A stretch of DNA of 20,000 nt from an uncultured virus (IMG/VR IMGVR_UViG_3300025927_000002) (IMGVR_UViG_3300025927_000002), one strand, 5' to 3'; counted from the first letter of the stretch, positions 186 through 17,017 are shown. Numbers and translations are program-made. The notes: generated from the letters alone by a model not told the origin.

Positions 186-836
186 CTACAGCAGCCAGCG
201 TCGCCTGCTATATAGCCCAAACCCTGTCAAAGCTGCGCCGAGCAAGGCCAGGCTGGCGGGCTCAGGAACCTCCGTCTGGCTATAAGTTTGGTCGATAATC
301 GAGATCGTCGCTTGCCCGTGCTCTGGCCCGATATACTCGATATCCTTGAAAACCCGGATATTGAGCGCCGCTTCCGACAGATCGACGTGATCGGTGAATT
401 GCGCCGGCGGGTTCAGCACGTTGAGCACCCCGATCAGATGCCCGTTGTCGATATTGAAGATCATCTCATTGATCGAGCTGATCGGCGTTCCGTTGAAAAA
501 CATCGACGCGTCGGTGAACGCGCTGCCGGCGATATGCGCGTCATAGCTGATAGCGGTGTCGCCAAACTGGCCGGGCAGCGCGTTGAACGCGCCGTTGATC
601 CTGATGCCAAACTCACCCGGGAACGGATCGGGCGGCGTCGTGCTGACGTAAGGCTCGACATTGATCTGGCCGCAGGGGACTCCGGTGCTCGTGCAGGTAA
701 AGTTGTCGAATGTAATGTTTCCCGACGCGACGATCGGACTTGGCAGGATCGGCTGGGCATCAACTGGCCCCGACGCGATCGCAGCAGCGACCAGCGCCGC
801 CGACACTGCGGTTGAGGTTATGAATGGTCGATGCAT
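186..836 (-). CDS. PEP-CTERM sorting domain protein (exosortase substrate)
   Basis: N-terminal signal peptide (ending VDA-Q) and C-terminal VPEPASLALLGAALTGFGLYSRRR (PEP motif, TM helix, Arg cluster); GGAG SD upstream. Confidence 0.95.
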   Translation of the reverse strand: MHRPFITSTAVSAALVAAAIASGPVDAQPILPSPIVASGNITFDNFTCTSTGVPCGQINVEPYVSTTPPDPFPGEFGIRINGAFNALPGQFGDTAISYDAHIAGSAFTDASMFFNGTPISSINEMIFNIDNGHLIGVLNVLNPPAQFTDHVDLSEAALNIRVFKDIEYIGPEHGQATISIIDQTYSQTEVPEPASLALLGAALTGFGLYSRRRWLL

Positions 837-1871: not shown

Positions 1872-1998
1872 GCCTAGCTAGCTTCCTCTGCAGAATGCGG
1901 AGATCAAGCCGCCTGCCGTTTTCGGCAGCGGTTACGACCGTCTGCGCTTCCTCGGCGACATCACGCAGATAGGCTAGCTCTCGTGCCGTGTCAGTCAT
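1804..1998 (-). CDS. Hypothetical phage protein
   Basis: ATG at 1998 overlaps the end of the upstream ORF (ATGACTGA); 3' end overlaps the convergent HTH gene. Confidence 0.45.
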   Translation of the reverse strand: MTDTARELAYLRDVAEEAQTVVTAAENGRRLDLRILQRKLARLSLLPPILHAPMVVPAKPAQAE

Positions 1999-2245
1999 CG
2001 CGCAGTGACTCGTGGTCACCGCTGGCAATGCAGTCGGCGGCATCCATTACAGCTCCGTACTCAGGGCCGGTCTCACAAAATACGTCTTTCGCCGCCATGT
2101 GCAGCCACGCGACAATTGCGGCGCGCTCCCCGGCGGCGATTTCTACCTGCATGCGCTCCGCCGTCTCGCAGGGGCCATCACCCTCAGCTTTCGGACCATC
2201 GCATGTAATAACATGACAAAATTTCTCGCATACCTTATTCATCAA
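1991..2245 (-). CDS. Hypothetical phage protein
   Basis: 84-aa ORF abutting the upstream stop; ERAAIVAWL segment typical of small phage proteins. Confidence 0.6.
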   Translation of the reverse strand: MMNKVCEKFCHVITCDGPKAEGDGPCETAERMQVEIAAGERAAIVAWLHMAAKDVFCETGPEYGAVMDAADCIASGDHESLRDD

Positions 2246-2464
2246 TCACCTGATCCCCCATATCACCCACAGCACGCCGAGCACGCCGAGCATCGCGCCG
2301 GTGGCAAAGGCAACCACGCGGTCGATGACAAGCGGCCAGTCGCGCCGGAGGCGCGGCATCGGCGCGGCTATTGAGTAACCAGCGACGAGCCGGTCGAGAT
2401 GCAGCTCGGCAAGCTGCTGCACAAGGATTTTTTCGTACCGCGCTTGCGCGCCCTCATCTCGCAT
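2246..2464 (-). CDS. Small membrane protein
   Basis: AGGGAG SD at 2471-2476, start MRDEGAQ; C-terminal hydrophobic helix. The longer ORF-track call runs into the non-coding array. Confidence 0.65.
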   Translation of the reverse strand: MRDEGAQARYEKILVQQLAELHLDRLVAGYSIAAPMPRLRRDWPLVIDRVVAFATGAMLGVLGVLWVIWGIR

Positions 2465-2476
2465 TGCCATCTCCCT

Positions 2477-3020
2477 GCCTACCGCGCCGAGCCGAGCCAA
2501 ACCCCGCCGTGCCAAACCCTGCCATGCCTGCCGGGCCAGTCCCTGCCGCGCCCCGCCAAGCCAAGTCATGCCTGCCAAGCCGGGCCACGCCCCGCCAATC
2601 CAAACCGTGCCACGCCAAGCCGCGCCTGCCGGGCCACGCCCCGCCAATCCAAACCGTGCCCCGCCAAGCCCCGCCTGCCGGGCCATACCTCGCCCATCCG
2701 CGCCACGCCTTGCCTAGCCCGCTAAGCCGGGCCACGCCCCGCCAATCCAAACCGTGCCTCGCCGGGCCTGCCATGCCAACCGCGCCAAGCCCCGTCCCGC
2801 CCAGCCAAGCCAGCTCTGCCACGCCGATCCGAGCCCAGCGCTGCCGTGCCGATCCGAGCCTTTCCGCGCCAGCCATGCCACGCCCTGCCCCGTCCCACCG
2901 TGCCTTGCCGCGCCAGCCTGGCCGCGCCAAGCCCCGCCGCGCCGAGCCGGACCATGCCTGCCCAGCCAAGCCCCGCCTCGCCTTCCCAGCCTCGCCCTGC
3001 CCTGCCGAGCCTGCCGTGTC
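2477..3020 (-). ncRNA. GGY-NN pentamer array of ~11 units, putative VIPR-type guide RNA array
   Basis: Near-strict 5-nt period: RCC-NN on + strand = GGY-NN on - strand (some GGA/GAC/AGC variants), ~97 variable dinucleotides, junctions mostly GGCAGGC/GGCTGGC every 43-59 nt; begins ~10 nt after the stop of 3031-3480. Confidence 0.85.
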
Positions 3021-3030
3021 CAAATGTTCG

Positions 3031-3480
3031 TTATTCCACCGGCTCGACGAGCTGCTCGCTTTTCCGTTCGCTTACTCGGCCGACATCTACTCGGTCGGCT
3101 GCCTCGAAAATGCGGACAAGCTCTCGCATGTACTGATACTTACGTTGCCAAACCCGAAACTCGGAGAGTGCTTGTGAAAGAGCCAACGCGCGCAACTCGG
3201 TATCGGACATCACCTCATCGATAGAGCGATATCCACCCTCGGTATGGCGATCTTGTATAAGCGAAATTGTTGCTCGTTTGCCTTCGTCCGAAACCACATG
3301 CACCGCGATCAAACGACGAACCTGCTGTAGGCGCCACTCTTCGGCCGCGAGGCCGTCGTCCCACTCTAAGCGCTTATGCAACTCGCTCTCAGGGTTCTTG
3401 CGAGCCCATTCAACAACGTTGTGCGGTTTGATAAACCCGGCACTATCAGTCAGATCAAGAAGCTCCCGCTCTACAGTCAT
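3031..3480 (-). CDS. Conserved phage protein, accessory partner of the RAMP-like gene
   Basis: IKPHNVVEWARKNPESELHKRLEWDDGLAAEEWRLQQVRRLI motif; ATGA overlap with the RAMP-like gene stop. Confidence 0.85.
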   Translation of the reverse strand: MTVERELLDLTDSAGFIKPHNVVEWARKNPESELHKRLEWDDGLAAEEWRLQQVRRLIAVHVVSDEGKRATISLIQDRHTEGGYRSIDEVMSDTELRALALSQALSEFRVWQRKYQYMRELVRIFEAADRVDVGRVSERKSEQLVEPVE

Positions 3481-4133
3481 GATGCCAACTCCCATGTACC
3501 AAAGCCGATGCCATTGCTATTTTTACTGAATGGCCGGCCTTCTCCGATACCGACCTGGATGCCGGCACGTGCCAGCAAATTTACGACGTCACCAGCCGAG
3601 AATTGATCACCATCCCAGCGCAGATTCACGACGCACTCCCACTTCGACCATATCGGCCGACAGCGTAGATCGACGACACCAGAATCGTTGCGGACCGGGA
3701 TAATTTTATGATCCTCGTCTGGGGCGCCCTCGATCCGTAAAAGCGGTGTTCCGTCTTCGGCGTCGTACCCATCCGCCTCGACAAAGATACTCATCTTTGC
3801 CCGTGTCATTTGGAACCCGCTCATACGACAGGCATCAATAAGGGCGGCGCGGAACCCAGGGGCCGGGATGCCATACCAGCCATCCGTTGCAACGTGAGCT
3901 GCGGCTTTCCAGTCCGCCTCGAAATCACGGGCGTCACGTTTGGCGCCCTTTTTTGAGCGCGCCCCCATCCGATGCTTTTCTTCGAGGATATCCAGGGCCT
4001 TCTTGGAGAACTTGTGCTGCATATACGGGGCTGTGCCGCGGATACGGATCGCACCTCGATCAAACTTTGGTGCCGCGATCGTAATCGCGGAATCTGACGT
4101 CGCGGCGGTGCTATTCAGAATGTCAAGAGGCAT
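3477..4133 (-). CDS. Stand-alone RAMP/Cas7-like protein (Vipr-like)
   Basis: N-terminal strand IRIRGTAPYMQH, IPAPGFRAALIDAC helix, CRPIWSKWEC strand, C-terminal Gly-rich loop GIQVGIGEGRP...GIGFGTW; GGAGA SD at 4141-4145 (alternative ATG 4136). Confidence 0.85.
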   Translation of the reverse strand: MPLDILNSTAATSDSAITIAAPKFDRGAIRIRGTAPYMQHKFSKKALDILEEKHRMGARSKKGAKRDARDFEADWKAAAHVATDGWYGIPAPGFRAALIDACRMSGFQMTRAKMSIFVEADGYDAEDGTPLLRIEGAPDEDHKIIPVRNDSGVVDLRCRPIWSKWECVVNLRWDGDQFSAGDVVNLLARAGIQVGIGEGRPFSKNSNGIGFGTWELAS

Positions 4134-4164
4134 CATAGATTCTCCGGATGGTTGGTTGAAATAC

Positions 4165-4452
4165 CTACAAGGCACGACTAAAATAATCGCGCCGCTCCTC
4201 CCGCCGTTCAGCGGACGAAGCGCTCGCCTCCAGCTCATCGAGCCTGGCTTCGAGTTCGGCGATGATCCGGCCAACGTGATCGGCGCGGTGCTCCCATGTC
4301 GAGATTGCCGCGCGCACGGTCTCGATGTTGTCGCTGCCGATTTCGTGCGGCATCGGCGGGCTGGGGTGACCAGCATCTTCGGCAATATCGGCAGTGCGCT
4401 CTGCCTCGTGTGAGGCGAGGTAATCCGGCCAAAAGGTATCGGGCACGGTCAT
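4165..4452 (-). CDS. Hypothetical phage protein (coiled coil)
   Basis: 95-aa ORF, ATGA overlap with the upstream gene. Confidence 0.65.
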   Translation of the reverse strand: MTVPDTFWPDYLASHEAERTADIAEDAGHPSPPMPHEIGSDNIETVRAAISTWEHRADHVGRIIAELEARLDELEASASSAERREERRDYFSRAL

Positions 4453-4661
4453 GGCGGATACTCAAACGGAGCCCGCTCATTCCAGGCGATCGCGGCGAGT
4501 TCTTCCGCCCCCTTGCCGTGAACTTCAGGACCCCGGCAATCGCAGTGCGCACACCCAACGTATGCGCTTACGGTTTCCCAGGATTCACCTGCGGTAATAC
4601 TGATCCCGTAGCCTCCTGCTCCGCAGAACGGGCAATGCTTTAATGGCGCGATGTCATTCAT
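4449..4661 (-). CDS. Lar-family restriction alleviation protein
   Basis: LKHCPFCG...VGCAHCDCRGP...AAIAWNER zinc-ribbon signature. Confidence 0.85.
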   Translation of the reverse strand: MNDIAPLKHCPFCGAGGYGISITAGESWETVSAYVGCAHCDCRGPEVHGKGAEELAAIAWNERAPFEYPP

Positions 4662-5094
4662 CGCTGCGTCCTCCTAAGCCCGCCGGCGCAGGGGGGATTG
4701 CGCCGGCGGGTAGGCACGCGCCGCGGCCAGGAGTCGGAGCCCGCGCGCTCTCGGCACTAGCGTCGTGATTCGCCCACCGAGGGTCTGGTGAAGAGGATGG
4801 ATCGCTGGCTTTCGCGAGCGCAGCTATTACCTGCTGCCGCACCGCTCCATTTGTATGGGTGTACGGCTCAGCCGCTTTCAGCGCGGCGACCAAATAATCG
4901 AAAGCATTAACCGCACGGACGATTAGACGGGCATTGGCCTCGGCTTCAGACCCATGCGGAGCTGTCGTCCAGCATGTCGCAATCAGACCACAAGCGACAA
5001 AGGTGCTCTCGTCTATGTGCCATATCCCAGGCTGTGATTGATTGCATACCCACGGGAGCGAGGTTGCGCTCACCGGCTTTTTTGTGGCGCTCAT
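4654..5094 (-). CDS. Conserved phage hypothetical protein
   Basis: LPW...EAEANARLIVRAVNAFDYLVAALKA motif common in temperate phage early genes; overlaps both neighbours. Confidence 0.75.
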   Translation of the reverse strand: MSATKKPVSATSLPWVCNQSQPGIWHIDESTFVACGLIATCWTTAPHGSEAEANARLIVRAVNAFDYLVAALKAAEPYTHTNGAVRQQVIAALAKASDPSSSPDPRWANHDASAESARAPTPGRGACLPAGAIPPAPAGLGGRSDE

Positions 5095-5774
5095 GACTGG
5101 CGACCCCCCATGAACAGATCGACAACCATCTCATTGAACCGCTTTTTGGCGGCGGCCCAGGCGGCGGCCCTGGCGGCGTCGGCGGCGGCCCTGGCGGCGG
5201 CCCTGGCGGCGGCCCTGGCGGCGTCGCCGGCGGCCCAGGCGGCGTCGGCGGCGGCGCAGGCGGCGGCCCAGGCGGCCCAGGCGGCGGCGGCGGTGCCGGC
5301 GGCGGTGCAGGCGGCGGTGCAGGCGGCCCCCGCGGCGGCGCCGGTGGCGGCCCTGGCGGCCTCCCTGGAGGCGGTGCAGGCGGCGGCTCTGAGCGTCTCG
5401 TCGCCCGCTTCGAGGTATTCTTTGACAACGGGCGGCGCCTCCCAAAAGTGGATCACCGACAATGCCTGCTCGCGCGCAAACTTCCGCAGCGTGTTTGTTG
5501 CATTGCGCATATCGACATATTCACGATACCTCGCACCCAGTTTATCATCATCCTCGACAACATCGCCCCAACAGCGGACCCGGTACAAATACTGTCCAGG
5601 GGCGTAGGTCAAAGCATCAAACGGGTCGCGAGATGCGTGGAGCGCGTTGTCGCAAAGGACGATATCGCCACCAACCGAATGCGATTCGCCGACGACAATT
5701 AGGCGACCATCGCCATGCGGCAGGCAATCGGACGCGGAGAACCACCACGCATCAATCTTCTTCGGAGCGCTCAC
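5091..5774 (-). CDS. Phage protein with Ala-rich AAWAA/AARA repeats
   Basis: Globular N-terminus (LCDNALHASRDPFDALTYAPG) followed by low-complexity Ala repeats; ATGA overlap. Confidence 0.8.
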   Translation of the reverse strand: MSAPKKIDAWWFSASDCLPHGDGRLIVVGESHSVGGDIVLCDNALHASRDPFDALTYAPGQYLYRVRCWGDVVEDDDKLGARYREYVDMRNATNTLRKFAREQALSVIHFWEAPPVVKEYLEAGDETLRAAACTASREAARAATGAAAGAACTAACTAAGTAAAAWAAWAAACAAADAAWAAGDAARAAARAAARAAADAARAAAWAAAKKRFNEMVVDLFMGGRQS

Positions 5775-5959: not shown

Positions 5960-6020
5960 GACCGCTCTCCCCGATCAGCCGTCGCCCTCCTGGGCGGATA
6001 GATCCGGTCTGACAAAGAGC

Positions 6021-6050
6021 ACCCTAGTGGGAAGTTTCCCACACCGTCAA
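6021..6050 (-). promoter_or_regulatory. pL-like promoter with operator OL
   Basis: TTGACG (-35), 18 nt, TAGGGT (-10); palindrome GTGGGAAGTTTCCCAC at 6027-6042 lies in the spacer. Confidence 0.8.
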
Positions 6051-6339
6051 GCGGAAAATCGCGCGGTCCGGAAACCGGAATGATCTTACCTGGAATAACC
6101 TTTGTACGAAAACGTACTTTATGCCGTAAGATGCGGCGTTGTCGTCAATCTGAGTGGCGGCAACCCCTCCGAACAGGTAGCGTTAATAAGGGAAATAGTG
6201 TGATGCTGGCGATAGTCGGAGGGGCGGACACGGAAACCACGAAGATGGCCACAACCCTAGGCGTCCCCCCGCTTACAGCGTTAAAAATCCGTGAATTTGC
6301 CGGCGTTTTTGCCGTGATGATGCTGGCGCTCGACCCCGA

Positions 6340-6831
6340 CTACGATTTCACACGCTCGAATTTCGCCAGCTCCGACCTCAACATCACTGATATCATGTGC
6401 AGGGCGGCCGTATTATCCAGCGCGTTAGAGTCAATCCGGCGCAACTCAATCAATTGTTGATGCGCTAGCGCGGCCAGGCCGGCGATGACGTGTGGCTTGG
6501 TTATCAACGGGTTGTCGTGATTTTTCATATCCATCGCTGCCGCGACCAGCTCTAGCGCGACATGCAACAGCCGCGGGTCGCAGCGATTGTCGGGGGCCTC
6601 AGTGACCCCAAGCAGCTCAGGAACCCCGCCAGGAAACTTAAAAGCCGCGGCAAGCTGCACGAGCTTGCGCAGGTTCGGCCAATGGCCAGTCTCCATATCA
6701 TGGATGGCTTTTGCCTGAACTTTCGAGCGCTTTAAGAGCGCGGTCCGCGACATGCCAAGTCGCTCAACTTGGGCATCTATGCGGCGCGCTATATTAACAG
6801 GGTGCCACGGGGCATCAGGTGTTATCAGCAT
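6340..6831 (-). CDS. CI-like XRE-HTH repressor (no S24 peptidase domain seen)
   Basis: RLGMSRTALLKRSKVQAKAIHDMETGHWPNLRKLVQLA HTH; divergent from the cro-like gene and flanked by operators. Confidence 0.75.
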   Translation of the reverse strand: MLITPDAPWHPVNIARRIDAQVERLGMSRTALLKRSKVQAKAIHDMETGHWPNLRKLVQLAAAFKFPGGVPELLGVTEAPDNRCDPRLLHVALELVAAAMDMKNHDNPLITKPHVIAGLAALAHQQLIELRRIDSNALDNTAALHMISVMLRSELAKFERVKS

Positions 6832-6847
6832 GTCCGAGCATACCAGA

Positions 6848-6863
6848 GTGGGAACTTTCCCAC
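6848..6863. promoter_or_regulatory. Operator within the pRM-like promoter
   Basis: GTGGGAACTTTCCCAC; extended -10 TGG-TATGCT (-10 at 6842-6837, minus) 5 nt before the repressor ATG. Confidence 0.8.
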
Positions 6864-6882
6864 CAAGCGAGATATTTTTCGC

Positions 6883-6911
6883 TTGCCCCGTGGGAATTTT
6901 CCCACTAGCCT
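6883..6911 (+). promoter_or_regulatory. pR-like promoter with operator
   Basis: TTGCCC, 17 nt, TAGCCT; palindrome GTGGGAATTTTCCCAC at 6890-6905 lies in the spacer. Confidence 0.8.
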
Positions 6912-6917
6912 GCGGCA

Positions 6918-7163
6918 ATGTTGACGTCTCGCCATCTGGCAACGCTCGCGGAGGCATTTGTCTCCTCAGGGAAAATGTCCCTCACTGGGCTGGGAAAGAG
7001 CTTATTCAACGATCACCGGTTTTTCAAACGTTTGATCGCGGGGAGAGATTGCACCACCGATAGCGCAGCGACGGCAACGCGCTTTTTCGTCGCAAATTGG
7101 CCCGCTGAGGCTGTGTGGCCTGCGGAAGTTCCGCGCCCGCCTTTGCCGGAGACCGCACCATGA
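6918..7163 (+). CDS. Cro-like regulator
   Basis: LFNDHRFFKRLIAGRDCT...FFVANWPAEAVWPAEVPRP, a pattern typical of alphaproteobacterial phage Cro-like proteins; divergent from the repressor. Confidence 0.8.
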   Translation: MLTSRHLATLAEAFVSSGKMSLTGLGKSLFNDHRFFKRLIAGRDCTTDSAATATRFFVANWPAEAVWPAEVPRPPLPETAP

Positions 7164-7522
7164 GCCACTGCCGAGGCTGCGGCAACCCGATCCCGCCGCG
7201 TAGGTACGCGCCGGCGCATTGCGGCCCGGCATGCGTGGATCTGGCGGTCGAGCGCGCCATCACGAAGGCGATAGGCCCAAAAGCTCCGGCTAATCGGCGC
7301 AAGGGCGTGACGCGATGCGCTCGGTGTGGCGCCGACCTGCCCCCCAAGCGACTGAAATTTTGTTCAGCCATCTGTGTCAAAGCACATCGGGCGGATGCGA
7401 AATCCCAGGCCACGACACGATGGTGTCTGGAGTGCGGCAACGATTTGTCGCCGAAGCATTTGCGCTTTTGTTCGCGCATTTGCAGCGACGATTACAAACG
7501 CGCCATGAGGGCATTAGCATGA
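7160..7522 (+). CDS. Protein with three CxxC...C(G/S)xxC zinc fingers
   Basis: CRGC..CGPAC, CARC..CSAIC, CLEC..CSRIC; ATGA overlap with cro. Confidence 0.75.
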   Translation: MSHCRGCGNPIPPRRYAPAHCGPACVDLAVERAITKAIGPKAPANRRKGVTRCARCGADLPPKRLKFCSAICVKAHRADAKSQATTRWCLECGNDLSPKHLRFCSRICSDDYKRAMRALA

Positions 7523-7620
7523 TCCAGTTTCGACTCACTCCATGCGGATGGACGATGTTTGGCGTGTCGGCCTTCTGGGTCAGCATCGTTGAATACCTGC
7601 ATTTCACCGGATGGCTGTGA
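7519..7620 (+). CDS. 33-aa hydrophobic peptide
   Basis: ATGA overlap; MIQFRLTPCGWTMFGVSAFWVSIVEYLHFTGWL. Confidence 0.5.
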   Translation: MIQFRLTPCGWTMFGVSAFWVSIVEYLHFTGWL

Positions 7621-7792
7621 TCGGCCGTCCTGTTAAGCGCGAAAAGCGCGGTTGCCGCCGCGCTCTGCGTGAACTTGCCTATTCCTTGGATTGCCTCTCG
7701 GCTTGCCGGCCTGGGGGCCTCAGTAGGTTTGTGATCCTCGCTTACTCCGTTCGCCATGGCTGACAACCTATCGACGGATATCGAGCTAGGAA

Positions 7793-8164
7793 ATGTCCAA
7801 AAGGGTCATCCAGGTGAGCGTCACAACAGCAGCCATCCTTCGCGATGTCTACGGAGCCAACGCCCGCAAGAAAATATCGCGCCAGTTCGGCGTTGCCCAG
7901 CGCACCGCTAAGGCGTGGCTCGATGGCCTGTTCCCCGAATCCCGAACAGCAGAACTCGCTGCGGTCGTGCGTGAAGACCTGGCCCAGCGCCAGACGCGTT
8001 ACGCAGAAATCCTAACGCAAATTGGAAAACATAATGAAAAAGCCGGGAGTAGCGAGACGCGGACTGCAGCGGGGGGCGATGCGCGCAGCGAAGGTCACGG
8101 TGCGCGCCACGAAGATTCTGAACAGCATCGCCGAAGAGTTACTGCGGTTCGCCGATCCCGATAA
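7793..8164 (+). CDS. CII-like HTH protein
   Basis: ARKKISRQFGVAQRTAKAWLDG HTH; located downstream of cro. Confidence 0.6.
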   Translation: MSKRVIQVSVTTAAILRDVYGANARKKISRQFGVAQRTAKAWLDGLFPESRTAELAAVVREDLAQRQTRYAEILTQIGKHNEKAGSSETRTAAGGDARSEGHGARHEDSEQHRRRVTAVRRSR

Positions 8165-8369
8165 TCCTAAGAACCAATTTGTCACAATCGATGAGGCGAT
8201 CGCTGAACTGAACAGACGAATCGCGACGCACGAACGAGCCCTTTCCGAAACCGGGCTGTCGGGTGGCGATATCGACGACGTGGTCGGGCTGCTGCAAGAG
8301 CTGCGCGAGACCAGAGTGCGGCTGCAAGAGCTGCGCAATTTTAGGAATTATCTAACCGGCGCGGAGTGA
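8034..8369 (+). CDS. Hypothetical coiled-coil protein
   Basis: Protein-like ORF ending 3 nt before the next start; start uncertain. Confidence 0.55.
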   Translation: MKKPGVARRGLQRGAMRAAKVTVRATKILNSIAEELLRFADPDNPKNQFVTIDEAIAELNRRIATHERALSETGLSGGDIDDVVGLLQELRETRVRLQELRNFRNYLTGAE

Positions 8370-8372
8370 GGG

Positions 8373-8753
8373 ATGCTCGATAGCGAAACGCTCACGGCTC
8401 GGAACAGGGACATCGTGCGTCGGGTGCGAGCCGGCAAGACACGCCGGGAGATCGCTCGCGAAACCGGGCTGAATTACAAATGGATCACGATAATCCTGAA
8501 GCGCTACGAGCACGCCACCGGCGCGAGACTGCCGCGCGATGTGCATGGTTCGCCCTGCCGGCCGCTAACCGAGCGCGACTGTGTGATTGTCAATGAATAT
8601 CGACGGCTTGAGTCAGTGCGAAAGGTTGCGGCGCAACGCGGCGTTAGCCACGGTATCGTACGAGGCGCAATCCTGCGGTACGAGCGCGCCACCGGCGAGA
8701 TAATACCACGCACAATGAAGCAGGAAGCGTGGCTCGCGGAACGCGCGACATGA
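8373..8753 (+). CDS. Tandem HTH protein
   Basis: Two repeats (LTARNRDIV..TRREIARETGL..RYEHATG and LTERDCVIV..SVRKVAAQRGV..RYERATG). Confidence 0.75.
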   Translation: MLDSETLTARNRDIVRRVRAGKTRREIARETGLNYKWITIILKRYEHATGARLPRDVHGSPCRPLTERDCVIVNEYRRLESVRKVAAQRGVSHGIVRGAILRYERATGEIIPRTMKQEAWLAERAT

Positions 8754-9259
8754 ACGCGCTTTGCATCGTCTGCTCCAAGCCGGTCCCGCGACCTGATCGC
8801 CGCACATGCGGCGGCGCGTGTCTGCGGAAATTGCGCGCCAGCCTGGCGATCAACCTTAATTCCCTGCAACGGGCAGAGGCGATCGCAGCCTACGATCGTC
8901 CGGTATGCATGAACCCGGCATGCGGTGCGCCAATCGTAATCCGTAACGACGAATCTCCCCTCCATTGGAGCCGCCGCAAGACGTGTTCAAAGCCATGCCT
9001 CAACGCGCTCCGCGCAAAGTCCAACGCCGAAAGGCCCCGGCGTAAGGCGGCGCATAAACCGACAAAACGTGCGGTTGCTGCCAAAGAGGCGGCGGAGAGG
9101 TACGGATCTGACCCCTCCGGCCACAAGCCGCGAAGGCTATCGCGCCCGCCGCGACACGACTCGACATTCGAGACCGTCGCAGAGGCGCGCGCCCGCGGGG
9201 TGGAGATCAAGAAACTCCCGCCCGCATTCGCCGCGCCGAGCAGTGCGGCAATCAAATGA
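8750..9259 (+). CDS. Zinc-finger protein with basic C-terminus
   Basis: CIVC..CGGAC and CMNPAC..CSKPC; ATGA overlaps at both ends. Confidence 0.7.
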   Translation: MNALCIVCSKPVPRPDRRTCGGACLRKLRASLAINLNSLQRAEAIAAYDRPVCMNPACGAPIVIRNDESPLHWSRRKTCSKPCLNALRAKSNAERPRRKAAHKPTKRAVAAKEAAERYGSDPSGHKPRRLSRPPRHDSTFETVAEARARGVEIKKLPPAFAAPSSAAIK

Positions 9260-9672
9260 AGGCACCTTCCATCACGGAAGCACAGCTCCACCGGCAAGTC
9301 GCCGACTATCTGAGCTGGGCGCTCGACGGTACCTCTTTGTTTTTTCATATCCCGATGGGCGGCAGCCGTCATTTTCTTGAAGCGAAAAATCTGAAAAAGC
9401 TCGGCAGCAGAGCGGGAATTCCAGACATTGCAGTGCTCCATAACGGATGCGCGTTCTTTACCGAATTAAAGACTGACGAGGGGAAATTGTCCGTCTCTCA
9501 GAAATACATGATTCCGCTGATTGAGCAAGCCGGATGCCCGGTTGCGGTGTGCCGATCGCTGAAAGATGTGATCGCATTTCTACGCCATCACGGGGTGCCG
9601 CTTCGCTTTGAGCCCATTTCGACCGAGCGCATCCGGCGCGGGTTTGCGAATGCGATGAAGGATGCGGAATGA
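9256..9672 (+). CDS. VRR-NUC (PD-(D/E)XK) nuclease, resolvase-like
   Basis: TEAQLH...GIPDI...FTELKTDEGKLSVSQK...VAVCRS. Confidence 0.9.
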   Translation: MKAPSITEAQLHRQVADYLSWALDGTSLFFHIPMGGSRHFLEAKNLKKLGSRAGIPDIAVLHNGCAFFTELKTDEGKLSVSQKYMIPLIEQAGCPVAVCRSLKDVIAFLRHHGVPLRFEPISTERIRRGFANAMKDAE

Positions 9673-10046
9673 GCGAGTACGAAAAATTCAGCGACCGGGC
9701 AGTTAAAGAACAGCTCGTCGCTGAGCGCGCTGTGAAGGCACCGAACTTACTTTGCTTCATCGAACAATTTCCGTTGGCGATGGTCGCCGTTGCGGGATGC
9801 CACGATTACGAACGCGGGCCGCTCGTCAAAGGGGACTATCGCCCATCGCTGCTACGGCATCTGTTCAAGATCGGCGAGCATCCGGATCACGACGCGGCGG
9901 TCGCCTGGAACGCGGTGGCACAATTGGAAATCAAGCTCCGGCAGGCGCAGAGCGCGACACCGACAACATTTGGCCCAGCCGAAATCTACGCCGCATCAGC
10001 GCCGAGGGTGTGGCCAGTACACACCACAACCGCACCACGCGAATGA
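9669..10046 (+). CDS. dATP/dGTP diphosphohydrolase-like (DUF5664) protein, divergent
   Basis: FPLAMVAVA...YRPSLLRHL...HDAAVAWNAVAQLE. Confidence 0.6.
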   Translation: MSEYEKFSDRAVKEQLVAERAVKAPNLLCFIEQFPLAMVAVAGCHDYERGPLVKGDYRPSLLRHLFKIGEHPDHDAAVAWNAVAQLEIKLRQAQSATPTTFGPAEIYAASAPRVWPVHTTTAPRE

Positions 10047-10252
10047 TGGGTGAAATGACCACCAGAAAACCGCAGAAGCCACAAAATCGCGCATGGCCAT
10101 TAAGGGAGTGGCACGAAGACATGGGAGACCAACTGTGGTGGGTATTCCCAATTAACGAGCCACCATACCGCGGCTCTCCGTTATATAACGATTGGCCTGG
10201 GTATCATACCCACTTTACGTCTTATGTGGTTCCGGCATCGGGTAAAGATTAA
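10043..10252 (+). CDS. Conserved small Trp/Pro-rich phage protein
   Basis: EWHEDMGDQLWWVFPINEPPYRGSPLYNDWPGYHTHFT; ATGA overlap. Confidence 0.75.
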   Translation: MMGEMTTRKPQKPQNRAWPLREWHEDMGDQLWWVFPINEPPYRGSPLYNDWPGYHTHFTSYVVPASGKD

Positions 10253-10411
10253 ATGACCGCACCCGAACACGCGCCGCTGAGCGAAGCGGAATTAGAAGCT
10301 GACACCTGGGCGTCCTGGTGGCTTGCGCATCGTGTAATCGGTGAAGAAGTGCGAACCGGGCGCCGCGAGCTGCCGGAATTTTTCAAGAGCAGGCGGGAGC
10401 AGGCCAAATGA
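10253..10411 (+). CDS. 52-aa hypothetical protein (not in ORF track)
   Basis: ATG directly after the previous TAA; its TGA overlaps the next ATG. Confidence 0.55.
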   Translation: MTAPEHAPLSEAELEADTWASWWLAHRVIGEEVRTGRRELPEFFKSRREQAK

Positions 10412-10623
10412 TCCGCACTATCGACCCTGCGGCCGCAATCCCTGTGCTGGAGCACGCCCTCTGGTGCGCAGAGCAAGGCATGACGCCCGCCGACATCTTC
10501 CGTGCGCTGCAAAAACCGGCGCACGTCTGGCCGACCTGGGCGCGCGCCGTGCAGGCACTAATCGTCGAGCACAACGCGATCAAGAAGCGCCAGACGCAAA
10601 GCCTATTGCGGGAGGCCGCATGA
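10408..10623 (+). CDS. Hypothetical protein
   Basis: ATGA-coupled on both sides. Confidence 0.6.
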   Translation: MIRTIDPAAAIPVLEHALWCAEQGMTPADIFRALQKPAHVWPTWARAVQALIVEHNAIKKRQTQSLLREAA

Positions 10624-10997
10624 CCGCCCGCACCGGCGCCCTCGACAAAGCGCTCGGCGAGCGCACGAAGCTAGATAGCAACTACAAAGCCTCAAAGCGG
10701 GAAGAGTGGTTTGGGCTATATGCCGACCCGGAATGGGGCGAGCGTCTGTGGGATTTCACGAAGCGCCTGGGGCGTTTCGGCCCAGACGATGGCAACACGA
10801 TGATCGCTTACGTTACGGAACAGCAGCGCGATTGGCTACACACCGCGCCGTACGAATTCAAATGCGCGGCGCTAACAGCCTGCGCCAATCGGCAGATGCG
10901 GGTGCGCCTTAAGCAAGGGTTATTGGCTATCGATGATCCGCTGCCGGGTGAGCCGGATGATGTTTTTAGAGCTTGTAAACGAGTGCTTGAACTATGA
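10620..10997 (+). CDS. Hypothetical phage protein
   Basis: GGGAGG SD; ATGA overlap; start MTARTG. Confidence 0.7.
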   Translation: MTARTGALDKALGERTKLDSNYKASKREEWFGLYADPEWGERLWDFTKRLGRFGPDDGNTMIAYVTEQQRDWLHTAPYEFKCAALTACANRQMRVRLKQGLLAIDDPLPGEPDDVFRACKRVLEL

Positions 10998-11227
10998 GAC
11001 CAGCAGACGCAACCCTACAAGCACGAATTCTCGAATCGCTCATCAGCGGCGGTAAGATTACGGCGCTAGACGCGTTAGATCTATTCGGAACGATGCGCCT
11101 CGCCGCGCATATCCATGCGCTGCGACGGCGTGGGCACGAGATTATTTCCGTGCGGGAGTCGCTCGGGCGGCGATGGTGGGTGCGGTATTCATTGCAGAAA
11201 CTCGCTCCAAAAGCGGCGGCAGAATGA
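10994..11227 (+). CDS. HTH (HTH_39-like) protein
   Basis: RILESL..GKITALDALDLFGTMRLAAHIHALRRRGHEI. Confidence 0.8.
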   Translation: MRPADATLQARILESLISGGKITALDALDLFGTMRLAAHIHALRRRGHEIISVRESLGRRWWVRYSLQKLAPKAAAE

Positions 11228-12225
11228 ATATCAGCATCCGCGAGATTTTGCACCAATACGCCGCATCACGCACGCGAACTTGGGCGCATGACCGCAGCAA
11301 GACTGTGGGCGCAAGCGAGATTGGCCAGTGCGCACGGAAGACGTGGTTTTCCAAGCACGATGCGCCGCGCGATCCGGATTATGTCGATGGTTGGGGCGCG
11401 GCACTGCGCGGCACGACAATCGAAGACCATTATTGGGTGCCAGCGCTGCGCTCATCGCTGCCGGAAGGATGGGAGTTGCTTTTCGCGGGAGATGAACAGC
11501 AATCGCTGAAAGACGGATATCTTTCGGCGACTACGGACGGGTTGCTCAACCATATCGCAACGAGCATTTGCATAAATCTCGATTGCAAATCTATAGATTC
11601 GCGCGCCGACATTTCGAAGGCTAAGGCGCAGCATACCTTCCAGGTTCAAGCTCAGATGGGCTTGATCCGCGACAAGACAAAACACAAGCCAGAGAAAAGC
11701 ATTATCTCATATATCGACGCGAGTTTTTGGGATGTCGTGACCGAATTCGTCGTGCCGTTCTCATCCCGCATCTATGCCCATGCGCATGTCCGCGCGACGC
11801 AGATCATGACCGCGCGCGACGCACTGGACTTACCGCCGGAAGGCAAGATGGCGGGCGGCGATGAGTGCAAGTATTGCGCCTGGGCCTCGCATTGCGCGGA
11901 GGTGACGGTCGCGGGCGTGCCGCGAGACGAAAACGAGCTGGATGATGTGGAAGCGAAGATGCTCAAAGGCATGCGCGATGACCTTATCGCATGCCGCAAT
12001 GAAGCGGCCGGCTTCGAGGCGAAGGTCGCCGAGAAACAGGAGCGTATCAAGCTATTCTTAAGGGATCACAATACCCGCCGTCATCGCGGGGATGATTGGT
12101 CGGTGTCGTACTTCCCAGTAAACGGAAAGGCGACGCTCGATCTCGACGCGGTCAAAGCTGCCGGCGTTGACCTCGAACCATACTACAAGACCGGCAATCC
12201 TGGAGAGCGATTGAGGATAGTATGA
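11224..12225 (+). CDS. Cas4-like PD-(D/E)XK exonuclease
   Basis: GASEIGQCARK, TDG, DCKS, QVQAQM and CKYCAWASHC (four Fe-S-type cysteines). Confidence 0.85.
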   Translation: MNISIREILHQYAASRTRTWAHDRSKTVGASEIGQCARKTWFSKHDAPRDPDYVDGWGAALRGTTIEDHYWVPALRSSLPEGWELLFAGDEQQSLKDGYLSATTDGLLNHIATSICINLDCKSIDSRADISKAKAQHTFQVQAQMGLIRDKTKHKPEKSIISYIDASFWDVVTEFVVPFSSRIYAHAHVRATQIMTARDALDLPPEGKMAGGDECKYCAWASHCAEVTVAGVPRDENELDDVEAKMLKGMRDDLIACRNEAAGFEAKVAEKQERIKLFLRDHNTRRHRGDDWSVSYFPVNGKATLDLDAVKAAGVDLEPYYKTGNPGERLRIV

Positions 12226-12494
12226 GCACCAAAGAACTTGTCATAACGCTTCGAGTGCCGCTCAGCGGAGAGATGTTTGAGGACGCCGCTGCGATTACGA
12301 AAGCGGCCGATATCGTGTCCAAGCTTAGACGGGAACTCGACGAAGAATTCGGTTCGAACGGTCACAGCCTGGTCGTCGATACCGAAACCAAGCGTGCCTC
12401 GCGCGCCGATGCTGGCGTTGAACGCCCGCAGAGCCGCGGTCCGCGCAAGGCGAAGGGTAATAGCGCCGAGAGTACCGTCTTCATACCAACCTAA
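12222..12494 (+). CDS. Hypothetical protein
   Basis: GAGGA SD; ATGA overlap. Confidence 0.65.
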   Translation: MSTKELVITLRVPLSGEMFEDAAAITKAADIVSKLRRELDEEFGSNGHSLVVDTETKRASRADAGVERPQSRGPRKAKGNSAESTVFIPT

Positions 12495-12567
12495 CCAAGC
12501 CAACACAAGCTCGTCGGGGCGGCTGTCGCCTGCGGCCAGCTTACCAACATAACAGGATAACAAGGTA

Positions 12568-13293
12568 ATGGACGACACAGAACTGATGCTTCGTAGCGGC
12601 GAGCTTCCCAGCGCACCACAAAGAACCGGAACCGCACTGGCGATGCCGGGAGCCGATCCCTTCGCCGCATATGGGGCAAGCGCTCAGACCGGCGATTTTT
12701 TGTCCTTCAAGAATGGCGAGTGGCTGTTCGGGGTGGACGGGGAAATGCTCGATCTCGGGACGCGCTTAGTTGCTAACGTGGAGGGGCTTAAACGCGGCTG
12801 GCGATGCTGGAAAGAGAAGAAGCTGGTCGAGGATCTGACCCGCCCGCTGATCGCCATGATCCCACCAGAGCGCCGCAGCGATCTTGGGGATACTGACCCA
12901 GCAATGTGGGAACGCGACGCCGCCGGGAAGCCGATGGACCCCTACGTGCTCACCGACATGATCGAACTGGCCGACCCAGCTGCGGGGAAGCTGTTCGTCT
13001 ACGCCACCTCATCAAAGGGCGGCACCAACTGCATCAAGCGGTTATGTGCAACCTACAGCCAGCACCGACGCCAGTCGCCTGGCGAGGTGCCGATCGTGTC
13101 GCTCGGGCGTGACAGCTACAACCACCCAGAGTTTAAAAAAATCTACGTCCCAATGCTGGAGGTGGTCGGCTGGACGGATGCCGAGAACCCGTCGGTCGAT
13201 GGCGAGGCTGAGGGAGACGACATTCCGTTCGACGGGCCGACCATCCCGGCGCGCGCGGCGGTGGGTGCGCCCGCATCAAAGACACGGTTCTAA
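12568..13293 (+). CDS. Putative phage single-stranded DNA-binding protein
   Basis: Lies between exonuclease and primase; acidic tail GEAEGDDIPF; FLSFKNGEW and YATSSKGG motifs. Confidence 0.65.
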   Translation: MDDTELMLRSGELPSAPQRTGTALAMPGADPFAAYGASAQTGDFLSFKNGEWLFGVDGEMLDLGTRLVANVEGLKRGWRCWKEKKLVEDLTRPLIAMIPPERRSDLGDTDPAMWERDAAGKPMDPYVLTDMIELADPAAGKLFVYATSSKGGTNCIKRLCATYSQHRRQSPGEVPIVSLGRDSYNHPEFKKIYVPMLEVVGWTDAENPSVDGEAEGDDIPFDGPTIPARAAVGAPASKTRF

Positions 13294-13296
13294 TAG

Positions 13297-15669
13297 ATGC
13301 GGGCGACTGCAATGCGCAGCACTGGGATTGATTGGGCTGCGCACATTGAGGCAGTCGCCCGCCGCCTCCGCGGCGAGCCGAACCAGCATCTCTCCAGCAA
13401 GACAGAGTTGCGGTTCGGCTCAAACGGCGGATTGCGCGTAACTGTCGCCGGAGAGCATCGCGGAACCTGGACAGATTTCACCGACGGTAATGCCAGCGGC
13501 GGTGTCCTCGATTTGATCGCCCATGATCTCCATTGCACAAAAAGCGCCGCGTTCGATTGGCTGAAAACAGAATTAAAGGTTGACATGCCGGATGATAAGC
13601 CAGCGCCAAAAGTCGCTAAGCAAGCGGCGCGCCCGGCCGCGCCGCAGCGCGTTGTCGACATTTATCGATATAATGACGAGCAGGGCAGTGTCCTCTATCG
13701 GGTGCTGCGATGGGGACCGCACAAGACATTCACGCAAAATCCGCCGGACGGCAAGGGCGGATGGATCACCGGCCCGGGCTGCATGAATGGCGTGCGCCGC
13801 GTGCCGTACCACATCAACGAATGGCTGTGGCACCCGGATCGCCCGCTCTACATCGCCGAGGGTGAAAAGGACGCCGACCGATTACGCGCTCTCGGTCTGC
13901 TCGCAACATGCAATGCCGGCGGCGCCGGGAACTGGCTGCCAACCGATAAGGATAACGCCGCGGAATTCATCGCGCTGTTCAGCGACCGTACGATTGTCGT
14001 GCTGCCCGACAATGATGAAGACGGGCGCAAATATGCAGACGCGGTTGTTCGCAGTCTGCTCCCCGTAGCAGCAGAGATCCGTGTCGTCGCGCTGCCCGGT
14101 CTGGCCGAGAAGGGCGACGTGTCGGACTGGCTCGATGCTGGGGGCGACAAGGATGCGTTGCTGGCGCTGGCTGACGCCGCAGTCCCGGTGCGAGAGGCGC
14201 CTACTACGCCGGCTAATGTGGTGCGGTTGCGGGCGGTCGAGAGCGAGCCAAAGCCAGAGGGCGATGCGCTGGAGCTATTCGGCCACCCGCTTAATGATAT
14301 CGGGAATGCGGAACGACTTATAGCGCGATACGGTGACAAGCTGCGCTATGTCGTCAATGTTGGCTGGTTTGTGTGGGACGGGCGACGATTTCACTATGAC
14401 CCGGCCATAGTCAAGGCTCGCATATTTGCGCATGATACTGTGCGCGATATGCTGGTTAATGCCTTCGACGCACCGTCGCATAAAAAGGAGCAGGAAGAGC
14501 GCAAGAAAGGTCTTATTAAATTTGCCATCAGCTCCGGCAACACCGGAAAGATCAACGGTATGTTGGCGCAAGCTGAGCCGCAACAGGCGATTGAAAACGG
14601 CGACCTTGACCGTGACCCATGGCTGTTCAATTGTGCCAACGGCACGCTTGACTTGCGCAGTGGTGAGCTGCGCCCGCATAGTCAGGATGATTTGCTAAGT
14701 AAGCTATCGCCCGTAGCCTTCGACCCGAATGCAGAATGCCCAATATGGGAAAAGACAATATTGGAGATATTCGGTGGTGATAGGGAAATGGTGGATTATG
14801 TCCAACGCGCCATCGGGTATTCGGCGACCGGGCTAACCACAGAGCAGGTTATATTCATTATGCACGGTGCCGGGTCGAATGGCAAAAGTCTAATGCTAAC
14901 GATCCTCGATGCGGTATTCGGCGATTATAGCATCACCGCCGCCAGTAAAACGTTTGTGCAGGACGATAAGGGAGACACGGCGTCGAATGATGTTGCGCGG
15001 CTCGCCGGCTCTCGGTTCGTCTCTGTCATCGAGACCGAACAAGAGAAAAAGCTGGCCGAAGGCTTTGTTAAACAAGCTACCGGCGGTGATGTTATGTCGG
15101 CGCGGTTTTTATTTAAGGAGTATTTTGAATTTATTCCAGTATTCAAAATATGGATGGCGACCAACCACAAGCCGCGGGTGCGTGGAACCGATAATGCCAT
15201 CTGGCGGCGCATCAGGTTGCTGCCGTTTCTCATTATATTTGCTGATCCTGAAGAGGCGGAAGCGGGACAGCCTATCAAGGATCTCGGCTTAAAAGAAAAG
15301 CTAATGCAGGAACTCCCCGGTATACTTCGATGGGTTTTAGATGGCGTTGCCTCATGGCGCGTGCATGGTCTGACGCAAGCGCCGGCGGCCGTTATGGAGG
15401 CCACGAAAGAGTACCGGGAGAGTCAGGATGCAACCGAAGGTTTTATTGTCGAGTGCTGCCATGTGTCACCCGGTCTACAATCTACGGTTGGTGATTTGTT
15501 CAAGGCATATAAGATTTGGTGCATCTCCAACGGAGAGACCGCAATCAGCTCGACAGCGTTCGGGTTGGCCTTGGAGGAGAAGGGGTACCCATCGGCACGG
15601 GCACCGGGGGGGAAGAGGATGCGTAAGGGGTTGATGTTAAAGGAGGAATATAGTGTGGTGGAGGGGTGA
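13297..15669 (+). CDS. Primase-helicase (TOPRIM + D5_N + P4-family SF3 helicase)
   Basis: TOPRIM IAEGEKDAD...LPDNDEDG; NDIGNAERL; NGTLDL; Walker A GAGSNGKS; KQATGGD; ATNHKP; AIWRR. Alternative start 13312. Confidence 0.95.
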   Translation: MRATAMRSTGIDWAAHIEAVARRLRGEPNQHLSSKTELRFGSNGGLRVTVAGEHRGTWTDFTDGNASGGVLDLIAHDLHCTKSAAFDWLKTELKVDMPDDKPAPKVAKQAARPAAPQRVVDIYRYNDEQGSVLYRVLRWGPHKTFTQNPPDGKGGWITGPGCMNGVRRVPYHINEWLWHPDRPLYIAEGEKDADRLRALGLLATCNAGGAGNWLPTDKDNAAEFIALFSDRTIVVLPDNDEDGRKYADAVVRSLLPVAAEIRVVALPGLAEKGDVSDWLDAGGDKDALLALADAAVPVREAPTTPANVVRLRAVESEPKPEGDALELFGHPLNDIGNAERLIARYGDKLRYVVNVGWFVWDGRRFHYDPAIVKARIFAHDTVRDMLVNAFDAPSHKKEQEERKKGLIKFAISSGNTGKINGMLAQAEPQQAIENGDLDRDPWLFNCANGTLDLRSGELRPHSQDDLLSKLSPVAFDPNAECPIWEKTILEIFGGDREMVDYVQRAIGYSATGLTTEQVIFIMHGAGSNGKSLMLTILDAVFGDYSITAASKTFVQDDKGDTASNDVARLAGSRFVSVIETEQEKKLAEGFVKQATGGDVMSARFLFKEYFEFIPVFKIWMATNHKPRVRGTDNAIWRRIRLLPFLIIFADPEEAEAGQPIKDLGLKEKLMQELPGILRWVLDGVASWRVHGLTQAPAAVMEATKEYRESQDATEGFIVECCHVSPGLQSTVGDLFKAYKIWCISNGETAISSTAFGLALEEKGYPSARAPGGKRMRKGLMLKEEYSVVEG

Positions 15670-15688
15670 TATAATAAGCATGGCTTAC

Positions 15689-15793
15689 TGTGACATGTTG
15701 CGAGTTGTGACGCGAAATCTTTATAATAGCCTACACACATATTTTCTCACGCGCGGCATAAGGAAAACGTGTCACAACCCGCAACATGTCACA
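15689..15793. repeat. 26-bp inverted repeat around an AT-rich core, candidate replication origin
   Basis: 15689-15714 versus the reverse complement of 15768-15793 match 24/26; TGTGAC occurs twice in each arm. Confidence 0.75.
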
Positions 15794-15862
15794 CGTCAGC
15801 AAGGCTGACCTATTTTGCGACCGTCTTTTCGCGCGAGACGCGAGGGCTTTTGGAGGACTGAC

Positions 15863-16591
15863 GTGGACACCGACGACGTGCCGTTCGGCAAATATCAAGG
15901 CATGGATATCAATGTCCTACTGGCCGACCGCGGTTACTGCATGTGGCTTGTGCGGCAAGACTGGCTAGAGGAACGATATCCCGCTATATACGGGATGATT
16001 GTCGATCAATATGATGTCGATGTCAGCGAATATATTCCTAGCGAAAGAATTAGGCAGCCAAAGCAAACCAAGAGGCAGGCGGCAGCGGAGGCGCATGGGG
16101 CGGCGGTTGTTGCTGCCTCGATCGCGACGTCGGTGCGTCAGCGCATGATCGAGAAGCAATCCGCCGCTGCGGCCGTGTTTGAAGCGCGCTGGACTTTAAA
16201 CGCGTTGTTGCGCGAGGCGCCCGACTTGTACGAGGCGCTCCAGGATCAGCTCGGTATGTTTCACGCAAGTCTCGGGGCCGGGACAGACGAGCAGATTGTC
16301 GCGCATGGCGAGGCGATGTGTCGGGGCTGGGCGGCGGCGATCGCGGTGATGGAGAAATCCAACATCGCGGCCGATGCGATTCACATTGGCGAGTTCGGGG
16401 AGTGCGTGGTTGCGATCGGGCGCATGCAGAAGGCGCCGGGATGGCTGCGCGAGCAATACGGGGATGGGGTGGTGTACCTGTGTCCGCGCGAGGTCGCGAT
16501 GCTGTATTTGCGACTCGACGTGGCGCGCGCGCTGAAGGCGGAATGGCCGGATGCTGAACTTACGGAGATACGCGAAAAGGAGAACGCATGA
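15863..16591 (+). CDS. Phage protein with N-terminal PFGKY (DUF3820/ExoX C-terminal-like) motif
   Basis: GGAGGA SD with GTG start; VPFGKYQG...DRGYCMWL. Confidence 0.7.
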   Translation: MDTDDVPFGKYQGMDINVLLADRGYCMWLVRQDWLEERYPAIYGMIVDQYDVDVSEYIPSERIRQPKQTKRQAAAEAHGAAVVAASIATSVRQRMIEKQSAAAAVFEARWTLNALLREAPDLYEALQDQLGMFHASLGAGTDEQIVAHGEAMCRGWAAAIAVMEKSNIAADAIHIGEFGECVVAIGRMQKAPGWLREQYGDGVVYLCPREVAMLYLRLDVARALKAEWPDAELTEIREKENA

Positions 16592-16956: not shown

Positions 16957-17017
16957 CAATTGAGAAAGGGGCGGCCTGCGGGCCGCCTCATCTGCAACCA
17001 TGCGAGAGGAATACACA

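Follow-up and report, generated by a model that had tools for sequence, protein, structure and literature searches.

The question raised by this locus is what a long, GC-rich array of five-nucleotide repeats is doing in the genome of a phage, and what the variable bases within its repeats might specify. The array occupies positions 2475-3015 of the stretch of DNA that was analyzed (20,000 nt from the uncultured virus IMGVR_UViG_3300025927_000002 of IMG/VR, hereafter the window) and lies within a row of minus-strand genes, after the ORFs at 3477-4133 and 3031-3495 and before an ORF of 74 residues at 2246-2470. The window covers early and replication genes of a phage or provirus, among them those for a D5-type primase (13297-15666), a RecE-like exonuclease (11173-12222), a VRR-NUC nuclease (9256-9669) and a Lar-like protein (4449-4658), and a megablast search against GenBank phages identified no close relative, returning a 61-nt match in the primase only. 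Our reading, in which we place considerable confidence, is that the minus-strand segment 2475-4133 constitutes a VIPR (Viral Interference Programmable Repeat) locus in a phage of the temperate type, in which duplicated guides match a terminase-adjacent gene of presumed rivals. The locus is a further case of VIPR, which was published in 2026, and not a new kind of system.

VIPR systems were first described in 2026 preprints, are mostly phage-encoded, and comprise 667 systems in the published set, with accessory genes designated vap1-6 (10.64898/2026.04.26.720920). As described in that preprint, Vipr is a RAMP protein of ~20 kDa that polymerizes on vrRNAs with one protomer per repeat, such that each GGY is hidden, and the NN dinucleotides pair with dsDNA with one base skipped between them, which in natural targets is usually the codon wobble base; binding silences transcription (10.64898/2026.04.26.720920). 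A vrRNA consists of 9-16 YNNGG repeats (the published search used a threshold of at least four repeats), and vrRNAs of type II, which alone among the VIPR types is characterized experimentally in depth in the 2026 preprints, end in an invariant 3′ tail of ~40 nt with a conserved structure (10.64898/2026.04.26.720920). The legend of fig. S18 also describes “staggered arrays,” in which neighboring vrRNAs share 1 nt and the end of one guide marks the start of the next (10.64898/2026.04.26.720920). A structural companion preprint reports Vipr solved in complex with vrRNA-type RNA (10.64898/2026.04.26.720927), and our search for literature on such arrays found nothing beyond these two preprints.

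The array in the window is ~540 nt in length and, as determined by tokenization and periodicity, is composed of ~105 staggered pentamers that read GG[C/T]NN on the minus strand and NN[G]CC on the plus strand. Cutting the plus strand after each CC produced 87 tokens of five nucleotides, 14 of four nucleotides (seven of which are TGCC on the plus strand) and a few irregular ones. In the 87 five-nucleotide units the GGN triplet ends in C 69 times, in T 7 times, in A 10 times and in G once, hence GGY in 76 of 87, and all 16 possible dinucleotides are present at the NN positions. The repeats thus have the form expected of tandem YNNGG repeats beside a vipr gene, with GGY conserved and NN hypervariable. 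The GC content of the array is 0.75, with a strong skew of C over G on the plus strand. Its autocorrelation peaks at lags 5 (0.59) and 49 (0.61), versus values of 0.21-0.35 at lags that are neither multiples of 5 nor one short of one, and Tandem Repeats Finder reported periods of 5, 10 and 49, from which we conclude that the regularity of the array is far beyond chance. Where the array is regular it is interrupted every ~8-10 units by a four-nucleotide token, GGCA on the minus strand and TGCC on the plus strand, as at 2573-2576, and this gives rise to the 49-nt period. Other GGCA tokens on the minus strand are found at 2529, 2627, 2676, 2769, 2959, and 3012, and the pattern is irregular in the right half (2770-3015). 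A conserved 3′ tail or pseudoknot is absent between the units of the array, as abutting units are separated by the four-nucleotide token only. No Rfam family was identified at gathering score in the window or in four other array loci, and a scan of 1900-4700 for promoter and terminator consensus sequences gave nothing above shuffles on the minus strand.

An initial annotation of this DNA had noted an identical 33-nt core at three places, and the copies at 2579-2611, 2628-2660, and 2726-2758 match letter for letter. That these three copies share seven identical variable dinucleotides indicates duplication, not low complexity. The strings of NN dinucleotides proposed at that time were reproduced exactly when the plus strand was cut at each CC, and the units themselves are real, although their borders had been placed 1-3 nt off the tokens at 2573, 2627, 2676, and 2769.

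The gene for the RAMP protein, vipr (3477-4133, minus strand, coordinates including the stop codon), encodes 218 residues and belongs to phrog_4652. A profile of 43 homologs matched the PDB entry 36pp_D, “SUSP1 Vipr protein,” with an E-value of 2e-6, and the single sequence matched SUSP1 Vipr at E = 9e-4, with residues 29-201 aligned to residues 6-180, i.e., over nearly the full length. An AF2 model of the protein (pLDDT 83.8) had CRISPR RAMPs throughout its top Foldseek matches in the PDB, including Csm3/Cas7 (8do6_E, E = 6e-5), type VII Cas7, Cmr, and Cas6. On these grounds the product of this gene qualifies as a Vipr protein, a type defined as a small RAMP homolog with an RRM core, a glycine-rich loop and a thumb. 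Its C-terminal G-loop, QVGIGEGRP, contains four residues (G195, E198, G199, and R200) that are invariant in the 43 homologs, as is R159. In SUSP1 Vipr the GGY contacts are made by H17, R138, D177, W178, and R179 (10.64898/2026.04.26.720927). In a pairwise alignment that is too distant for equivalent contacts to be provable from it, H17, R138, D177, and R179 lie opposite H40, R159, E198, and R200 of the 218-residue protein, and W178 aligns with the invariant glycine G199. We identified 1078 homologs, of ~215 residues, and a Pfam domain was present in none of the 120 listed; the family is present in many phyla, based on genome contigs, and the best match (65%) is in a Steroidobacteraceae MAG.

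The end of vipr overlaps by 19 nt with a candidate vap (vipr-accessory) gene (3031-3495, minus strand, 154 residues; phrog_15946, E = 5e-20), and the array begins 16 nt downstream of this gene, on the same strand as vipr. A scan of IMG/VR with the single accessory protein returned no relatives, but an HMM did find them: with an HMM of the relatives, a homologous ORF was located in 73 of 80 Vipr loci, on the same strand as vipr and in most cases immediately after it. At the level of homologs, this candidate vap gene is conserved in a minimal operon with vipr. The AF2 model of the accessory protein is mostly helical (pLDDT 90.9). No Pfam family was assigned to it and no PDB structure was matched by Foldseek at E ≤ 0.001; the best VIA-align match, on a helical hairpin, had a Z-score of 4.5.

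The association of such arrays with vipr is not peculiar to this phage. A scan of IMG/VR for a period-5 GCC pattern that was blind to genes identified at least 139 loci, and among the matches listed there were 68 loci whose arrays reach 20 units or more, in some cases exceeding 130 units. A Vipr-like ORF was found in the short flanks of 32 of these 68 listed loci (23 of 35 where the flanks are at least 2.5 kb), in every one of the 32 on the GGYNN strand. Conversely, of the best 80 loci with a Vipr homolog in IMG/VR, 73 have 12 or more GGNNN units arrayed on the same strand as vipr, compared with a single locus that has such an array on the opposite strand. The four-nucleotide tokens in the arrays of the 80 Vipr loci are GGCA in 493 of 584 instances, from which it follows that the punctuation behind the 49-nt period is conserved, in agreement with the staggered layout in the legend of fig. 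S18.

Two of the related loci in IMG/VR have a different organization. In L088:260-1090 there are three NNGCC arrays, of ~32, 33, and 60 units, with a conserved spacer of ~85 nt between them; this could be the ribozyme-interspersed layout mentioned in the preprint, and no hammerhead was identified in these spacers at the Rfam gathering score. The array at L107:290-800 (minus strand) has an 11-nt CTGAGGTAGCC token every 10-18 units in place of the four-nucleotide token, along with a four-fold internal duplication of ATGCC GAGCC AGGCC CTGCC, and may represent another array grammar.

Type II VIPR, as represented in the preprints by Escherichia phage SUSP1 and a Pseudomonas fulva prophage, provides the closest comparison. 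The locus in the window resembles it in several respects: its RAMP protein is small and a homolog of SUSP1 Vipr, vipr and the accessory gene form a two-gene operon carried by a phage, and NN is hypervariable in the GGY/NN pentamers. As in type II, the predicted targets obey the 1-nt skip at the wobble base and lie in other phages, and no self-target was found. Unlike the vrRNAs described for type II, the guides here lack the invariant 3′ tail of ~40 nt and form one continuous array with four-nucleotide GGCA tokens; this argues against membership in type II and not against VIPR, because staggered, tail-less arrays are described in the preprint. The 49-nt period (10 × 5 - 1) and the GGCA tokens fit the 1-nt offset given for staggered vrRNA arrays in the legend of fig. 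S18. Further differences are that the units here have 8-10 repeats where regular, compared with the published 9-16, that this Vipr is distant from that of SUSP1 at the level of single sequences and has Gly in place of W178, and that the accessory protein is without a DNA-binding fold recognizable in our searches. The predicted target is also different, being the 5′ end of a terminase-adjacent gene here and lysis-lysogeny regulators or a satellite in the type II systems as described.

A broader likeness is to the backbone of class 1 CRISPR-Cas systems, i.e., Cas7/Csm3 on crRNA, with which Vipr shares the RAMP fold, the occupancy of one protomer per short RNA period and the periodic flipping of bases (10.64898/2026.04.26.720927). 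As described in the preprints, VIPR differs from class 1 CRISPR-Cas in its 5-nt period, its three sequestered bases and the reading of two of every three bases of the target. The locus is not itself a CRISPR-Cas system: no CRISPR repeats and spacers, cas1, cas2 or other cas genes were identified among the 45 ORFs scanned in the window, and the ORF with a weak PHROG label of “CRISPR/Cas system associated” is the RecE/Cas4-like exonuclease at 11173-12222. A similar rhythm is also known from TRAP, which binds (G/U)AG triplets 2-3 nt apart in the Bacillus trp leader with one subunit per triplet, so that three conserved nucleotides alternate with two free ones some 10 times over. The spacers of a TRAP site are uninformative and its RNA is a regulatory target, unlike the present array, in which the spacers are predicted to be the information and the RNA the guide. 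A TRAP-like protein-binding array, a G-quadruplex, a Rho-loading site and an R-loop element were considered as candidates and were superseded by the identification of VIPR.

What the guides may specify was examined with the three that share the duplicated core, all on the minus strand. The plus-strand dinucleotides of G3 (2577-2626) are AA GG AC CC AA AA GT AC AA GC, which decode as [KN]GTP[KN][KN]VT[KN]A; those of G4 (2631-2675) are GG AC CC AA AA GT CC AA CC, decoding as GTP[KN][KN]VP[KN]P; and those of G6 (2724-2768) are AA GG AC CC AA AA GT TC GG, decoding as [KN]GTP[KN][KN]VSG. IMG/VR was scanned for exact NN matches with a 1-nt skip, with G3 and G4 combined in a merged pattern. The merged pattern produced five matches, corresponding to four distinct sequences and of the G3 type throughout, in ORFs of 306-408 nt. 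The skipped base was at codon position 3 in all five, and in four of them no other open frame at the site is longer than the matched ORF. Four loci (three distinct sequences) encode the peptide GTPNKVTKA and the remaining one GTPKNVTNA. The NN bases of G3 were matched 20/20 in three contigs and 18/20 in a fourth, with contig GC contents of 0.35, 0.36, 0.48, and 0.61, and the skipped bases differ between them. The G6 pattern matched IMG/VR exactly twice; both sites are in frame, inside GRKTGGRKKGTPNKVSGDMKA, and belong to the same protein family.

The reversed merged pattern, used as a control, matched IMG/VR twice, in both cases out of phase and with unrelated peptides, the in-phase frame being short. 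As five real matches against two in a single reversed-control scan is a modest enrichment, the decoding argument rests on codon phase and on convergence upon one gene family: the skip is at codon position 3 in seven of seven exact IMG/VR matches of G3 and G6 together and in neither of the two control matches, and six of the seven read GGRxKGTPNKVTKA or ...GGRKKGTPNKVSG, the seventh being KGTPKNVTNA of a T4-type small terminase. G3 and G6 thus both conform to the VIPR rule of skipping one nucleotide, usually the wobble base of a codon. When 200 shuffled-order versions of G3 were compared with the matched contigs, the maximum was 16-17 of 20.

The exact pattern of G4 had no match in IMG/VR, and G4 agrees with a G3-type site at 16/18 bases. 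In a far larger metagenome collection G4 had 23 exact matches, scattered in phase and without family context, as by chance, demonstrating that 18-base gapped patterns do match by chance in very large collections. The exact pattern of G9 was also without a match in IMG/VR. Guides G1, G2, G5, and G8-G11 gave nothing above shuffles against the three target contigs and 0.4 Mb of target-family loci, G5 being borderline (15/18 in the provirus G002, a value reached by 0.03 of shuffles).

Taken together, these results support the interpretation of the guides put forward in the initial annotation. It had proposed wobble-skipping guides with gaps at codon position 3, which is the mechanism published for VIPR vrRNAs, at a locus that we now find to have a Vipr protein, and the phase of all seven exact matches agrees with it; the GTPNKV-like motif it had decoded is the one read in the ORFs of six of them. 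The excess of gapped matches over controls that was anticipated is small as a count and distinct as a matter of phase. The suggestion that the guides had duplicated and diversified to cover variants of one gene is upheld for G3, which fits the VTKA variant, and for G6, which fits the VSG variant, but not for G4, which has no exact match within the family.

Three of the four distinct G3 matches are in small proteins of 96-127 residues (phrog_11043/15261/8771) with the N-terminus K(K)TGGRxKGTPNKVTKA. The residues that are matched (K/N, G, T, P, V, A, and S as TCN) each have a fixed two-base codon prefix, and consequently the peptide would be recognized whatever the codon usage. A search of IMG/VR for the target family identified 254 relatives. 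Among the 80 of these that were kept, G3 matched at least 16/20 bases in 52 and at least 19/20 in 30, counts that are inflated by construction as the relatives had been retrieved with the peptide TPNKVTK. The association of this motif with small proteins encoded beside terminase genes, which the initial annotation had brought up, is evident in the genomic neighborhoods: in 33 representative loci the ORF directly downstream of the target gene is a large terminase in 25, a glycosyltransferase in five, phrog_2472 alone in one, and nothing recognizable in two.

For the comparison of self with non-self, a virus record (L304) that is 100% identical to window positions 6017-20000 added 10.8 kb, for a total of 30.8 kb of phage, and the added sequence has genes for a portal, a scaffold protein, a large terminase, and a small terminase that belongs to a family (phrog_1482) other than that of the target. 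Within these 30.8 kb there is no self-target, as no guide beats its shuffled controls and the best self-match of G3 is 15/20. A look at the phage's own packaging genes had been recommended earlier, and its small terminase proved to be without the targeted N-terminal motif. One of the 20/20 targets of G3 lies in G002, a complete 45-kb provirus with a GC content of 0.60 that is a distant relative of the window phage, having collinear tblastx matches and 68% nucleotide identity in TerL over 482 nt; this provirus is a plausible natural competitor.

The small terminase of the phage itself (L304:655-1077) and a target protein (L293:1293-1580) have unrelated N-termini, and what they share is a C-terminal V(A/G)GDADNPL(K/N)V, the GDADNPL(K/N)V portion of which is all that the small terminase has in common with the target protein. 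The shared motif suggests a common tail that may dock to the large terminase, and to this extent would support a small-terminase role for the target family.

From the polarity of the array and its co-orientation with vipr, the guide RNA would be the minus-strand transcript (GGYNN), and the order on this strand, i.e., vipr (the RAMP gene), then the conserved accessory gene, then the putative long staggered vrRNA array, suggests the following course of events, in which we rely on SUSP1 as a model. Transcription of the array would proceed from the minus strand, giving an RNA of GGYNN pentamers that is presumably processed into guides, and in the ribonucleoprotein each repeat would be bound by one Vipr protomer with GGY sequestered. 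The exposed NN would then pair with dsDNA bearing complementary dinucleotides, with one base skipped between them. The three duplicated guides would be directed at the sense strand of codons for (K)GTPNKV(TKA/SG/PKP), a conserved N-terminal motif. The likely outcome is a CRISPRi-like silencing of the packaging operon in competing phages or prophages of the same host, with G002 representing the sort of phage that may be the natural target.

The locus is a clean natural example of VIPR from a clade that is different from type II and very large. New here are two diverged duplicate guides whose exact matches are to two separate natural variants of a single conserved site, a predicted target that is terminase-adjacent and heads a packaging operon, the GGCA punctuation of a tail-less clade, and an accessory protein without a recognized fold. 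The four-nucleotide punctuation may set the boundaries of guides without a structured tail. We would also entertain, as a tentative proposal that is somewhat more doubtful than not, that the clade as a whole (>1000 Vipr homologs in many bacterial phyla) has tail-less staggered arrays with GGCA as sole punctuation, in which guides duplicate and diverge locally, tracking the peptide variants of a conserved motif in the packaging gene of rival phages. Were that so, they would be broad-spectrum “peptide-motif” guides against the terminase operon, and neither such a target class nor such an array grammar appears in the main text of the preprints. The processing of staggered arrays and the use of wobble-skipping guides as broad-spectrum weapons against conserved protein motifs are questions that the locus makes testable. 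It is also of interest that the published recognition code was recoverable from sequence alone, without tools.

Three other explanations of the array deserve consideration. The one that concedes most to our reading, and which we regard as unlikely, is that the array is a genuine VIPR array whose guides act elsewhere, on a host gene or an uncollected element, and that the KGTPNKV matches are a by-product of a common motif. The motif family is indeed very common, as its 254 relatives in IMG/VR attest, and one of the 20/20 matches of G3 is in an unrelated AT-rich phage (L292), in a T4-type small terminase (phrog_445); as this phage cannot share a host with the window phage, exact matches need not be natural targets. 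In addition, when G3 was scanned with up to one mismatch against 401 genomes sampled from the class of the closest Vipr-bearing MAG, matches were found in five genomes, all of them 19/20, on the opposite strand, and in a cytochrome c assembly protein (PF01578) at the motif AFLTFFGVPF. Against this, the cytochrome match has one mismatch and involves a single gene family, versus two matches for the reversed control in the same 401 genomes, making it compatible with chance and a possible off-target. The terminase-adjacent reading is also favored by the independent divergence of G3 and G6, each of which is an exact match to its own natural variant of a single site in the target gene family, and by the presence of a 20/20 target in a distantly related provirus, G002, of the same GC content. 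As a separate observation on the genome matches, all five (L417-L421, in genomes G378, G089, G224, G141, and G067) fall at a conserved C-terminal VLAFLTFFGVPF of the PF01578 protein.

The other two explanations dispense with guides altogether. It is very improbable, in our estimation, that the array is no more than a GC-rich satellite or some structural element (a G-quadruplex, i-motif or protein-binding array), passively co-inherited with its neighbors: the array does duplicate like a satellite and the GG N3 spacing of its minus strand would permit two-tetrad quadruplexes, but nothing in a purely structural function would lead one to expect that the variable positions match a conserved gene exactly and in phase. 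Nor would it sit easily with the strict strand polarity relative to the RAMP gene (73 versus 1 of 80 loci, and 32 versus 0 in the loci of the blind scan) or with the homology of that neighboring gene's product to a protein which, according to the structural preprint, was solved in complex with such RNA. An even slimmer chance attaches to the array coding for a repeat protein by way of the minus-strand ORF 2454-3023 (189 residues). A single minus-strand frame is open through the entire array; however, in GGYNN units a stop would nearly always need NN = TA, and so open frames are to be expected from composition, the other two minus-strand frames do carry stops, and since 49 is not a multiple of 3 the copies of the repeat are read in different frames. 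This ORF has no Pfam or PHROG match, and in related arrays TAGCC units are frequent, which places stops on both strands, so that the related arrays are not coding.

Having returned to VIPR as the preferred reading, we note several minor features of the surrounding sequence. The ORF of 74 residues at 2246-2470 (minus strand), for which no Pfam or PHROG family was identified, starts 5 nt past the array, with GGAG before its ATG, and has a hydrophobic C-terminus. A perfect 18-nt tandem repeat, GCTCAGCCGCCGGCTCAG, is present in 5.3 copies (100% matches) at 17090-17185, inside an ORF at 17000-17413 (plus strand). An imperfect repeat of the GGCGGCGGCCCA type, with periods of 12, 21, and 33, is found at 5148-5387 in an ORF at 5091-5771 (minus strand) that has a DUF7666 N-terminus, and probably encodes a low-complexity linker. 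Near the start of the window, the ORF at 186-833 (minus strand) carries a PEP-CTERM sorting motif at its C-terminus (PF07589, E = 2e-5) and may be host DNA, in which case the end of the provirus would lie between ~900 and ~2200, close to the array.
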